A stretch of DNA of 64,000 nucleotides from a bacterium. GTDB lineage: Bacteria > UBA8248 > JACPRG01 > G963555815. The notes beneath the pieces were generated by a model. That model had not been told where the DNA came from, searched no databases, and saw only the letters and a program-made list of their open reading frames with translations. The DNA lies in assembly GCA_965261595.1 (NCBI GenBank), contig CBDHDG010000004.1:608001-672000 (forward strand), written 5' to 3'. Positions 21,355 through 44,818 of this stretch are shown here, one piece after another. The position numbers and the translations under genes were made by a program. Numbering within the stretch: position 1 is the first letter of the stretch; each line of letters opens with the position of its first letter.

Positions 21355-21429
21355 GCGGGAATAGCTCAGAGGTAGAGCATCGCCTTGCCAAGGCGAGGGT
21401 CGCGGGTTCAAATCCCGTTTCCCGCTCCA
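21355..21429 (+). tRNA. tRNA-Gly(GCC)
   Basis: Complete cloverleaf, TCGCC-TTGCCAA-GGCGA anticodon arm, TTCAAAT T-loop, encoded CCA. Confidence 0.97.
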
Positions 21430-21482: not shown

Positions 21483-21556
21483 GGCGGCATAGCCAAGCGG
21501 TAAGGCAGAGGCCTGCAAAGCCTTGATCCCCGGTTCGAATCCGGGTGCCGCCTCCA
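21483..21556 (+). tRNA. tRNA-Cys(GCA)
   Basis: Complete cloverleaf, CTGCAAA anticodon loop, TTCGAAT T-loop, encoded CCA. Confidence 0.97.
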
Positions 21557-41525: not shown

Positions 41526-42749
41526 TTGAATCCCATTCGATACGCGGTCCCCACATGGATTGAAAGGTCCCGGACCCCCTCCAAAACCGGACGTCGAATA
41601 AAGCGGTGGGGGATCGCCGCCGGCGTCCTGCTCGTGCCGCTGGCCGCCGCCTTTCCCGCGTATTTGCTCGTAACGGGAGGGGGAACCCTGAAGCGGGCCT
41701 ACCAGCATGTGACCTATGAAGTCCTGGCGCACAGGGCGTCCCCCGGCCGGGCGTCCGAGGTGAAAGTCGTGTCGGACCTGATGACCTTCCTCCACTGGCG
41801 GATGAACGTAACGGCCGACACCCCTTCGCGAGATCGGCCCTTCCTGGACGTGGCCGTGGATGGGACGGCGTACTGCAATCAGATCGCCGTCGGCCTGGCC
41901 CACCTCCTCGCGAAAAAGGGGATTCAAGGCCGTCTGGCGATGCTTCGGAACAAACAGGGCGTCTCCCCCCATTCCGTGACCGAAGTCTTTCTGGACGGCC
42001 GCTGGGTCCTGGTCGATCCCCTCAATGGCATTTTTCCCGGGGCCGACCGGGGCGGCGTCACCCTCCGCGAGCTCGGCGCGGACTTCTCACCCATCGAGAA
42101 TTTACCCGTTGTGGGGGGGAAACACCGGCTCTCCGCGGTGGCAAGCGACGGCAGCCGCCGGGACGATTTCGTGGAGTGGTATCGGTCGTTCATCGTCAGT
42201 CCGATCGGGCCCGACCGACCGGGCATCAGCTTCGTCCGGGGTCAGCGGCCGAAGCAACGCCGGGTGATTCGGCTGACAGCGTTGTATTATCAGGTGTTCG
42301 GCAGGGCCTTCTCGTCCTATGTGCAGGACTTCTACTTCGTCCGGAACCGCTCCTGGTTTCCCGAGAGAAACCTCCCCCGAAAAAACCTGGCGGCCGCCCG
42401 GCAATACGCGCTTCACGCCCGCTGGCACAAGGCGCTTCCCCTCTATCGCGAGGTCCTCGCCTCGGCTGCGGGCCCGGCCCGCGAGGACGCCCTGTTCTTC
42501 TCGGGCATGGCCCTGCTGGAAGCGGAAAGGCCCCGGCCGGCGCTGAAGGCACTCAACACCCTGGCGGGCGAGTTCCCCGGGGGGGGGGGACGCTGGAAGG
42601 GAATCGTTCACTTCTATCGCGGAGAGGCCCTCCGGGCGCTGGGCCTTCTCGGAAAAGCCGAGGAGGCTTACCGCATGGCGCCCAGGAACCTTCTGACGCC
42701 CGCCCGGCGCCGCTTGACTTCCCTCAGCGTCGCCGCGAAACCCCGCTGA
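41526..42749 (+). CDS. Membrane-anchored transglutaminase-like domain and TPR protein
   Basis: AYCNQIA, HSVTEV, WVLVDP (Cys-His-Asp); C-terminal TPR. Confidence 0.7.
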   Translation: MNPIRYAVPTWIERSRTPSKTGRRIKRWGIAAGVLLVPLAAAFPAYLLVTGGGTLKRAYQHVTYEVLAHRASPGRASEVKVVSDLMTFLHWRMNVTADTPSRDRPFLDVAVDGTAYCNQIAVGLAHLLAKKGIQGRLAMLRNKQGVSPHSVTEVFLDGRWVLVDPLNGIFPGADRGGVTLRELGADFSPIENLPVVGGKHRLSAVASDGSRRDDFVEWYRSFIVSPIGPDRPGISFVRGQRPKQRRVIRLTALYYQVFGRAFSSYVQDFYFVRNRSWFPERNLPRKNLAAARQYALHARWHKALPLYREVLASAAGPAREDALFFSGMALLEAERPRPALKALNTLAGEFPGGGGRWKGIVHFYRGEALRALGLLGKAEEAYRMAPRNLLTPARRRLTSLSVAAKPR

Positions 42750-42807
42750 CGGGGGGGGGACGCTCCTCCCCTTCGCCCAAACCCGCTGAGCTGAAAGGAA
42801 ATTTTCG

Positions 42808-43305
42808 ATGCCCGAAAAACGCAATCAGCCCCACGTCATTGTACGCACCGTCGGCCGGGGGACGCAGATGCAGATGTTCACGACAACGGGCAAGCACTCC
42901 TACATCCTCGATGAGCCTGAAATCCGAGGCGGAGACGATTTGGGGGCGTCGCCGTACGAGTTCTTCATCGCCGGATACGGCGGCTGAGGCCTCCTCACGC
43001 TACTGGGAGTAGCGAAGGCCCGCGGCATCCGGCTGGACGACGTCGAGATACACCTCAGCTTCAAGCGAAGCCTCACGCCGAAGTTTCACAAGGATTACCA
43101 CGGCGATCCCGAGCGGCGAAAAAACAAGCTCGCCCAGCTCGTGTCGGACGTGTACATCAAAGGGGATGTGACTGAAGAGCAGAAGGCGATGCTTCTGGAC
43201 GAGATGAAGAACTGTCCGCTGCACAACACGATGATGAGGCCGCCGGAGCTCATCGAGAACCTCCACATCGTCCCCCCGGACGGGGAAATGCCCCGGTACG
43301 AATGA
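42808..43305 (+). CDS. OsmC/Ohr-family selenoprotein (Sec60), 165 aa
   Basis: DEPEIRGGDDLGASPYEFFIAGYGG-[TGA 42985-42987]-GLLTL...NCPLHNTM; TGA at the first catalytic Cys position; absent from the ORF track. Confidence 0.88.
42988..43020 (+). promoter_or_regulatory. Putative bacterial SECIS element
   Basis: GGCCT-CCTCA-CGCTACT-GGG-AGTAGCG-A-AGGCC immediately 3' of the in-frame TGA. Confidence 0.8.
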
Positions 43306-43399
43306 CCCGCGGCCGGGCGATGAACACCCGTCCCCCGGCGCTTGTCGAATCCGGAGGGCGCCGACCGAAAGGGGGACGCGTCCCTTCGGGGGCTTCGGC

Positions 43400-44434
43400 T
43401 CAATCCTCAACCGGATGGAGGAGGACCTTCACCTCTTCGGCCGCTTCGAGCCTCTCGAACGACGTTTCCCATTCGGTGATCGGAACCCGGCTGGAGACGA
43501 TGGCCCGCGGGTCCACCTTGCCTTGGCCAAGGAGGTCCAACGCGCGCTTCCAGTCCCGCCAGTTGTGGGAGAACATCCCCGTCACCTGAACCTCTTTGTA
43601 GGCGATTTGCTCCCAGTCGATTTCGAACGGTCTGCCCATCAGGCCGACCTGGGTGAACTTCCCCGCCTTCCGGACCAGGTCCAACAGCAGTCCGGCCGCC
43701 GCGGGCGCGCCCGCCGACTCGAAAACGACGTCCGCCCCGAATCCGCCGGTGAGATCGCGGACGAAAGAGACGGCGTCTTCTTCGTCAAGGTTCATGACCC
43801 CCGCCAACCCCAGGGTTCGCGCGACCTTCAACCGGACGGTGTCGCGGTTCGTTCCCAGCAGAATGACGCACCCCCCTTCGGCCTTCGCGACCTGCGCCAC
43901 CATCAGGCCGATGGGGCCGGGCCCCGTCACGACGACAACGTCCCCCGCCTGGACGCGGGTCAGGTGGATGACGCCGTGGACGGCGCAGGCCAGGGGCTCG
44001 GCCAGCGCGCCCGCGATGAAATCCACATTGTCGGGCAGTCGATGGAGGAGGGCTTGCCGCGCGATGACAAAATTGGTGAAGGCGCCGTCCACACCGTAGC
44101 CGAAACCGAGGCGGTCGTTGCAGAGGTTGTAATCGCCGCGCCGGCAGAACCGGCACCGGCCGCACGTCTTGGCGGCCGTTTCACACGTCACGCGGTCCCC
44201 GGGAGCGTATGCCGTCACGCCCTGCCCGACTTCAGCGACCTCGCCGCAGAACTCGTGCCCCATCACCACGGGCGGGTTGGACATGAAATGGTCGTGATAG
44301 ATGTGGAGGTCCGTCCCGCAAACTCCGGCGTTCCGGACAGCGATTTTGACCTCACCCGGCCCGGGCGATTTCTCGGCGACTTCCCGGACTTCGACGTTGC
44401 CCGCCCCCCGCGCTGTCTTCACGACTCCAAGCAT
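43400..44434 (-). CDS. Zinc-binding dehydrogenase (sorbitol/threonine dehydrogenase-like)
   Basis: VCGTD, GHEFCG, CGRCRFC..C, GPGPIG. Confidence 0.92.
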   Translation of the reverse strand: MLGVVKTARGAGNVEVREVAEKSPGPGEVKIAVRNAGVCGTDLHIYHDHFMSNPPVVMGHEFCGEVAEVGQGVTAYAPGDRVTCETAAKTCGRCRFCRRGDYNLCNDRLGFGYGVDGAFTNFVIARQALLHRLPDNVDFIAGALAEPLACAVHGVIHLTRVQAGDVVVVTGPGPIGLMVAQVAKAEGGCVILLGTNRDTVRLKVARTLGLAGVMNLDEEDAVSFVRDLTGGFGADVVFESAGAPAAAGLLLDLVRKAGKFTQVGLMGRPFEIDWEQIAYKEVQVTGMFSHNWRDWKRALDLLGQGKVDPRAIVSSRVPITEWETSFERLEAAEEVKVLLHPVED

Positions 44435-44818
44435 CGGAATCCCTCCCATCGGCATTCCCACGCCGATTTTCCATGATGAAAGGAGGCTTCCCTTGATCCT
44501 TCTTGAAAACGCCCCCCCCTCGCCTCTCTCCCGTTTTGCGCAACAAATTTTGGTTTGTATCTTCTTTTTTACTTTTAGGATTGCCTGAAAATGATTATAC
44601 TGCCTAACAATCCACGGAATGGGGAAAGCCGGAGCTCACCGGTAACATGTGACTGGACCACCCCGAATATACCGAAAGCGAGTTGGTTTCGGCAATCTCG
44701 TAAAGATGGGCCGGAGGGTGTTCACTCAATCCTCCCGCGTGCCGATATCTATAAGGTGAAGCGGCCGAAACAGCGCCGGACGGGTCATTCCGCGAACCTC
44801 AGCCGAGGAAAATCAAAA

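Follow-up and report, generated by a model that had tools for sequence, protein, structure and literature searches.

The DNA analyzed here is a stretch of 64,000 nucleotides, referred to as the window. It has a seemingly empty gap of 650 bases, with a transglutaminase-like/TPR gene on one side and the convergent gene of a Zn-dependent alcohol dehydrogenase on the other; the gap looks empty because translation with table 11 splits the frame that lies there. The frame opens with ATG, continues for 59 codons to a TGA in the context G-Y-G-G-U-G-L-L-T, its sole internal stop, and then runs for a further 105 codons to a terminal TGA (Table 1). Translation with table 11 breaks it into ORFs of 59 and 54 amino acids, and the gene is therefore missed by ordinary ORF calling.

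According to the original prediction for this locus, an apparently gene-free gap held one 165-codon OsmC-like frame with a single TGA at codon 60 and an intact second cysteine in NCPLHNT, which standard ORF calling would overlook. The analysis bore this out. The conceptual translation matched the Pfam OsmC family (PF02566) at 49.6 bits, compared to a gathering cutoff of 27.5, with residues 42 to 148 on profile positions 1 to 97 of 100, and the match spans the TGA. The second cysteine, Cys136, aligns with the cysteine of C-P-V-H in Cys-type homologues and in PDB 9wo1.

Table 1. Positions of the features discussed (numbered within the window; positions beginning with G000 are genome loci)
Feature	Position	Strand	Remark
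Two tRNA genes	21355-21426; 21483-21553
Transglutaminase-like/TPR gene	41526-42749	+	upstream neighbor
Shine-Dalgarno-like AAGGA	42795-42799	+	8 nt upstream of ATG, read from sequence
Predicted OsmC-type selenoprotein CDS	42808-43305	+	165 codons, then terminal TGA
In-frame TGA, codon 60 (predicted Sec60)	42985-42987	+	column of first conserved OsmC cysteine
Whole hairpin, including lower stem (42988-42992 / 43016-43020)	42988-43020	+	centroid fold
SECIS-like core, 7-bp stem (42998-43004 / 43008-43014) and GGG loop (43005-43007)	42998-43014	+	starts 10 nt past TGA
Subfamily-specific loop, residues 91-105, P-K-F-H-x-D-Y-H-x-D-P-E-R-R-K	43078-43122	+	alignment A3
Cys136 (TGT) in N-C-P-L-H-N-T, residues 135-141	43213-43215	+	column of second conserved OsmC cysteine
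Terminal TGA	43303-43305	+
Zn-dependent alcohol dehydrogenase	43400-44461	-	convergent neighbor
Paralogue of the window gene	G000:C6:216591-217058 (L058:992-1459)
Five NF041052 genes (L089-L093)	G000:C7:962751-963188(+), C5:439008-439427(-), C6:1062236-1062598(-), C5:635613-636032(+), C4:731241-731609(+)
Cys-type OsmC-like genes	G000:C7:263863, C5:426705, C5:428587
Other likely selenoprotein genes	G000:C2:223187, C7:382286, C5:212515, C6:138536 (L069, L083, L073, L080)	+	hairpin scan
tRNA with anticodon UAU	G000:C6:63141-63235 (L020:1502-1596)
Copies of TGA-plus-hairpin repeat	G000:C2:1696(-), C2:350898(+), C4:2771(+), C5:4101(+), C5:1111170(-), C6:689(-), C6:1808316(+), C7:1374453(-)

No promoter, including sigma-70-like ones, was found in positions 42600 to 43500. 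In that interval, terminator-like sequences occurred only at two minus-strand sites within the gene, and these were taken as chance. Three ORFs that overlap the gene (42102-42824 and 43000-43410 on the minus strand and 42176-43012 on the plus strand) had no Pfam match and were discarded. The G+C content around the gene was ordinary (0.62 to 0.66) and thus gave no sign of foreign DNA. Synteny with a class IV aminotransferase gene, the transglutaminase-like/TPR gene, and the alcohol dehydrogenase gene was found within the window's own family only, and orthologs in the other family were flanked by unrelated genes (DAC/YbbR, a deaminase). When the two families were compared, the neighboring genes gave no operon logic or functional hint.

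Conservation of the in-frame TGA and the downstream hairpin

Orthologs were sought in the genomes of 61 relatives. Full-length matches at 58 to 99% identity were found in 27 genomes, among them the window's own, and every one of them (27/27) had one internal TGA, in a single shared alignment column, with ATG at the same start and a length of 164 to 165 codons. The gene was present in 27 of the 51 species genomes of the phylum (one class) and in 5 of its 15 genera; by family, it occurred in four of the six other genomes of the window's family, in 22 of 42 in a second family, and in neither of two further families represented by one genome each. The TGA was at the same place in further whole copies on metagenome contigs (L065 and L066) and in a genome record (L056), and in a cut copy (L067); the metagenome scan yielded four loci only and therefore added little breadth. 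One genome of the large genus had no full-length ortholog. Two overlapping partial matches there (G026:C10:1515472-1515842; 42 to 44% identity), one of them with a TGA, may represent a diverged or frameshifted copy.

A clean two-stem SECIS hairpin with a G-rich loop had also been predicted immediately after the TGA. Both stems exist, and the upper stem and GGG loop were conserved, but the lower stem was not. The lower stem pairs GGCCU with AGGCC and the upper stem pairs CGCUACU with AGUAGCG; the minimum-energy fold of a 46-nt piece contained the upper stem only, and the centroid fold contained both. In single-sequence folding of this G+C-rich piece, stability was no better than that of shuffled sequences (z = -0.30; 70 of 200 shuffles folded at least as well), and the case that the putative element is more than chance rests on comparative evidence.

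Across the 27 orthologs (20 distinct sequences), the upper 7-bp helix was 99.3% paired, compared to 23 to 52% in slid-partner controls, and included two compensatory pairs (A-U/G-C and C-G/U-A). The covariation score was 0.128 versus 0.089 ± 0.009 in shuffles, none of which (0/500) reached it. Third codon positions varied at 7 of the 11 hairpin codons versus 149 of the 154 others (Fisher P = 0.0012, for related sequences that are not independent), and among four-fold sites in boxes common to all 27 orthologs, three of five were invariant in the hairpin (T64, G67, and A69) versus 0 of 23 outside it. The upper stem was untouched in L056 despite changes in the two leucine codons of the spacer. 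The pairing, synonymous-site, and L056 data together point to a conserved element of a 10-nt spacer, a 7-bp stem, and a GGG loop, with the lower stem optional. The 5-bp lower helix was 80.0% paired across the orthologs and was gone in L056, so that it probably does not belong to the conserved element.

The usual distance from UGA to loop in bacterial SECIS elements is 16 to 37 nt, and the loop here begins 17 nt after the UGA. The hairpin also fits the account of bacterial SECIS elements in the 2005 report on OsmC-like selenoproteins (PMC1088965), as stem-loops just past the UGA with a small apical loop that contains G. A scan of the whole window at Rfam gathering thresholds gave no SECIS family; the two ordinary tRNA genes listed in Table 1 were its sole matches.

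Selenocysteine machinery and the reading of codon 60

The genome (6.17 Mb in 7 contigs; 96.7% complete) has the machinery for selenocysteine insertion. The gene selA (550.5 bits) adjoins selB (389.9 bits), selD (329.9 bits) carries a TGA of its own, and there is one tRNA-Sec (72.1 bits), which ARAGORN called as SeC with anticodon tca; all four were above curated cutoffs. The remaining matches to the tRNA-Sec model (RF01852) that were examined were Ser tRNAs, Leu tRNAs, and one tRNA with a UAU anticodon. The last is 95 nt long, with a variable arm of ~20 nt, which is unusual with this anticodon; it was called Ile by ARAGORN and scored 54.2 bits with the Rfam tRNA model and 39.4 bits with the tRNA-Sec model.

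These tRNAs bear on whether UGA might be read as Cys, Trp, or Gly through a suppressor tRNA or an altered code rather than as Sec. One public protein, P0002, has W at both TGAs of a relative's gene, a result of the code chosen by the gene caller for a 737-base contig. Yet TGA also terminates the gene in 11 of the 27 orthologs, the window's included (TAA in the other 16), and the sole tRNA found with a UCA anticodon was tRNA-Sec. Furthermore, a conserved hairpin at fixed spacing is required by SelB-dependent decoding and not by suppression. Thus, insertion of an ordinary amino acid seems very unlikely.

The ratio dN/dS was 0.10 to 0.44 downstream of the hairpin (11 ortholog pairs) and 0.04 to 0.33 upstream of the TGA (pairs with unsaturated dS), which indicates that both halves of the frame are under purifying selection, with conservation as strong after the TGA as before it. 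Contigs from three RNA-library runs (three studies) and one further run crossed the TGA with at least 31 letters on either side and had no letter there but TGA. One of the contigs (X16) was from a strain variant with six differences elsewhere and the TGA unchanged. Such contigs are no proof of transcription because RNA libraries can contain DNA, and parts of the stretch without RNA-library contig cover were uninformative. An RNA-library contig from run X15 (window positions 42827 to 43144) joined 42827-42962 on the plus strand to 42937-43144 on the minus strand, a snap-back that is most likely a library or assembly artifact.

Decay of an OsmC gene into a pseudogene through a nonsense mutation, or an assembly error for TGC or TGT, would be in keeping with a frame broken under table 11 and with public protein sets that contain pieces only. 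However, the TGA is shared by all 27 orthologs down to 58% identity, dN/dS is well below 1 on both sides, and the TGA recurs in contigs of four independent runs, so that decay or error is even less probable than an ordinary amino acid at codon 60. Equally improbable is a pair of small, independent genes divided by a hairpin that acts as a terminator, an attenuator, or some other regulator: some records do call the C-terminal piece as a protein of 98 to 100 aa, but the first in-frame start past the TGA, a GTG at 43141, leaves 54 codons only, the OsmC domain crosses the TGA, neither half alone has both conserved cysteine positions, and no T run follows the stem.

These results suggest, with high probability, that the UGA of codon 60 is recoded as Sec. 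The shared TGA column, selection on both sides, the conserved upper stem, the presence of selA, selB, selD, and tRNA-Sec, and the other likely selenoprotein genes of the genome all favor the Sec-dependent reading that had been proposed from the window, and the follow-up that had been suggested for it (homologues with Cys or TGA at this column, Sec genes in the genome, reads with TGC or TGT, and conservation past the TGA) came out in its support. By analogy with the established bacterial pathway, for which the hairpin, its conservation, and the four machinery genes are in evidence here, the UGA would escape being read as a stop when SelB carrying Sec-tRNA(Sec) binds the 7-bp stem with its GGG loop 10 nt downstream and delivers Sec to the ribosome. 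The locus is very likely a functional gene, whose 165-residue product would have the OsmC/Ohr fold, with a predicted Sec60 in place of the first active-site cysteine.

Relation to OsmC-like proteins and proposed reaction

An AlphaFold model computed from 12 orthologs had a mean pLDDT of 74.2 and a pTM of 0.71. Among the Foldseek matches listed, nearly all were OsmC, OsmC-like, or Ohr proteins, and 61 had an E value of ≤0.001; the top match was 1lql_A (E = 2.1e-07, TM score of 0.52 to 0.60). The rmsd values were high (6 to 14 Å), as would be expected from comparisons in which a domain-swapped dimer is modeled as a monomer. The OsmC and Ohr hydroperoxide reductases (Escherichia coli OsmC, 1nye and 1qwi; Ohr, 1n2f and 6ecy) share the fold with the window protein (Foldseek probability of 1.00, TM score of 0.4 to 0.6), with marginal sequence similarity (E = 0.003 to 0.9). 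Two cysteine positions are common to both, as is a Glu ~9 to 10 residues before the first of them, the spacing found in Ohr.

The closest solved relative was the C-terminal OsmC domain of PDB 9wo1 (E = 3.6e-15, residues 25 to 151), which has a Cys opposite Sec60 and C-P-V-H opposite the C-P-L-H of the window protein. In 14 library homologues with 26 to 36% identity, both cysteines aligned with Sec60 and Cys136, and the columns of these two residues were invariant in the ortholog alignment (A3). The premise that OsmC and Ohr proteins use a Cys where the window gene has its TGA is thus supported by the distant homologues and 9wo1. Cys-type OsmC-like proteins of the YhfA/COG1765 type (the 9wo1 C-terminal domain and 2opl) differ from the window protein in having Cys instead of Sec and a shorter loop, often with C-x-x-C, and many are fused to another domain (300 to 420 aa). 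To our knowledge, many proteins of this type have no proven substrate.

OsmC-like selenoproteins are already in print. Three sequences from the Sargasso Sea with a UxxT motif (COG1765) appear in the 2005 report (PMC1088965), and two reviews list the family with the same motif (COG1765/PF02566; PMC9312934 and PMC13188914). They share with the window gene the fold family, Sec at the column of the first cysteine, and a small G-containing hairpin past the UGA, as does the NCBIfam model NF041052, "OsmC-related (seleno)protein." However, the window protein fails that model, with 48.3 bits versus a cutoff of 95 (39.2 bits in a six-frame search of the genome); an ortholog from the other family, L028, scored 59.6 bits. 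Five other genes of the genome match NF041052 at 118.8 to 158.7 bits. Every one of them contains a single TGA, in G-I-G-x-U, followed ~12 to 13 nt downstream by a hairpin, and the five are of the published type.

The window gene differs from the NF041052 type in several features. Its motif is U-G-L-L-T (U-x3-T), compared to the published UxxT and to U-[LT]-L-[TS] in the five genes; its second cysteine is in N-C-P-L-H-N-T rather than G-C-F-A; it has a 15-residue loop rich in His, Asp, and Arg that the NF041052 type does not have; and its hairpin, 10 nt past the UGA, has a GGG loop rather than GUA, GUU, or UGUNN. The genome also has a paralogue that is 39% identical to the window protein, with a TGA in the same column, C-P-V-H-N-T at the second cysteine, and the same hairpin geometry (10-nt spacer, 7-bp stem, and 3-nt loop starting with GG). 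The paralogue is without the F-H-x-D-Y-H loop, and its relatives occur both with TGA and with Cys. The window gene and the paralogue are of the more canonical OsmC type, C-P-x-H-N-T.

In a 35-row tree, for which 12 of the 27 orthologs and 11 of the 150 library matches listed were used, the 12 window-type rows formed one clade (support, 96/97) on a stem of length 0.92. The five NF041052 rows also formed a clade (100/99), parted from the window clade by a 96/96 branch; the order of the window clade, the paralogue clade, and the Cys-type rows was not resolved by this tree. The term "OsmC" did not occur in the accessible portion of Table S1 of BSepDB (PMC13326102). The window gene belongs to a distinct subfamily beyond the curated model, of a kind that is itself known, and the family list of BSepDB may already name it. 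Such novelty as there is lies at the level of the subfamily or lineage, as had been anticipated, given the failed NF041052 match and the OsmC-like selenoproteins already published (PMC1088965).

A search of 1.84 billion representative proteins revealed no Cys form of the window type, and none of its matches fell below an E value of 1e-30. The same search gave 1,076 matches at an E value of ≤0.001 and 83 at ≤1e-10; the best were fragments that ended at residue 59 or started past residue 60, and the best full-length proteins were 26 to 38% identical. When 5.8 billion proteins were searched by word index, four matches were obtained, three C-terminal pieces and the P0002 call, which is 196 aa long. 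The public proteins P0002 to P0005 and P0008 to P0015 were N-terminal pieces to residue 59, C-terminal pieces of 59 to 100 aa, or this W-read product; one C-terminal fragment bears the name "hypothetical protein."

By analogy with OsmC and Ohr, the Sec60 selenolate would attack a hydroperoxide or related oxidant, Cys136 would resolve the oxidized selenium as a selenenyl-sulfide, and a thiol reductant would then reduce the selenenyl-sulfide, with the invariant Glu51 and Arg40 as possible catalytic acid/base partners. Peroxidase chemistry, which draws on the family, is moderately favored.

It is also possible, though clearly less probable, that the protein is a genuine selenoprotein with another redox task, in which Sec60 and Cys136 reduce a disulfide, a persulfide, or a metal(loid) and the F-H-x-D-Y-H-x-D-P-E-R-R-K loop binds a metal or a partner. 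Ten residues of the loop are invariant (P91, K92, F93, H94, H98, D100, P101, R103, R104, and K105), including two His and one Asp, and many Cys-type homologues, as well as 9wo1, have at the same place H-x3-C-x2-C, which resembles a metal site or a second redox center. Model confidence in the loop was low (means of 54 and 64 for 10-residue blocks). The seven Sec-type OsmC-like genes kept in the genome (the window gene, its paralogue, and the five NF041052 genes) alongside three of the Cys type also suggest a division of labor. However, a peroxidase of the OsmC fold needs the pair of cysteine positions and the Glu, and the protein retains both positions as well as an invariant Glu nine residues ahead of Sec60 (Glu51); nor is there a conserved neighbor that points to another pathway. 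A still more speculative version, which we regard as rather unlikely, is that the window type forms a branch of the OsmC fold that uses Sec only, in which the loop that replaces H-x3-C-x2-C is a new metal or partner site with another substrate or reductant, making the protein one of seven specialized Sec-OsmC enzymes in a selenoprotein-rich marine lineage.

Whether it is a peroxidase or has another redox task, the predicted selenoprotein is a well-supported case of a real gene dropped by standard annotation, of which public sets show fragments or a W-read product. With it, the OsmC-like selenoproteins gain a distinct subfamily, for which no Cys form was found. The gene also indicates that one genome can hold seven Sec-containing OsmC-like genes, a set that bears on the heavy investment of some marine lineages in selenium-based oxidant defense. 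Knowledge of Sec decoding and of the OsmC fold is unchanged by this gene.

Other candidate selenoprotein genes in the genome

UBA8248 is named as a selenoprotein-rich group in the BSepDB paper (PMC13326102). The genome was scanned strictly for TGAs followed, after 8 to 14 nt, by a 7-bp stem without mismatches whose loop starts with GG. Of 43,884 TGAs flanked on both sides by 25 or more open codons, only 60 had such a hairpin. Twenty of the 60 were tested against Pfam, with an eight-copy repeat and short frames left out, and four of the 20 had the TGA at the redox motif of a classic selenoprotein type: CMD/AhpD-like proteins with C-x-x-U (two genes), one AhpC/TSA protein (W-U-T-V-C), and one thioredoxin-like protein (W-U-P-H-C).

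Similar hairpins were seen at two other, less expected candidate loci. One (L074; G000:C5:469327, plus strand) is a Meth_synt_2-like frame with its TGA in F-H-L-U-R-G-N and a Pfam match confined to post-TGA residues, and the other (L072; G000:C4:387822, minus strand) is a muconolactone-isomerase-like frame below the Pfam cutoff. The eight-copy repeat has a TGA followed by a hairpin with the stem GGCTCGA and the loop GGCGA. Its copies are identical, all lie a few kilobases from contig ends, and it looks like a mobile element that broke the assembly.
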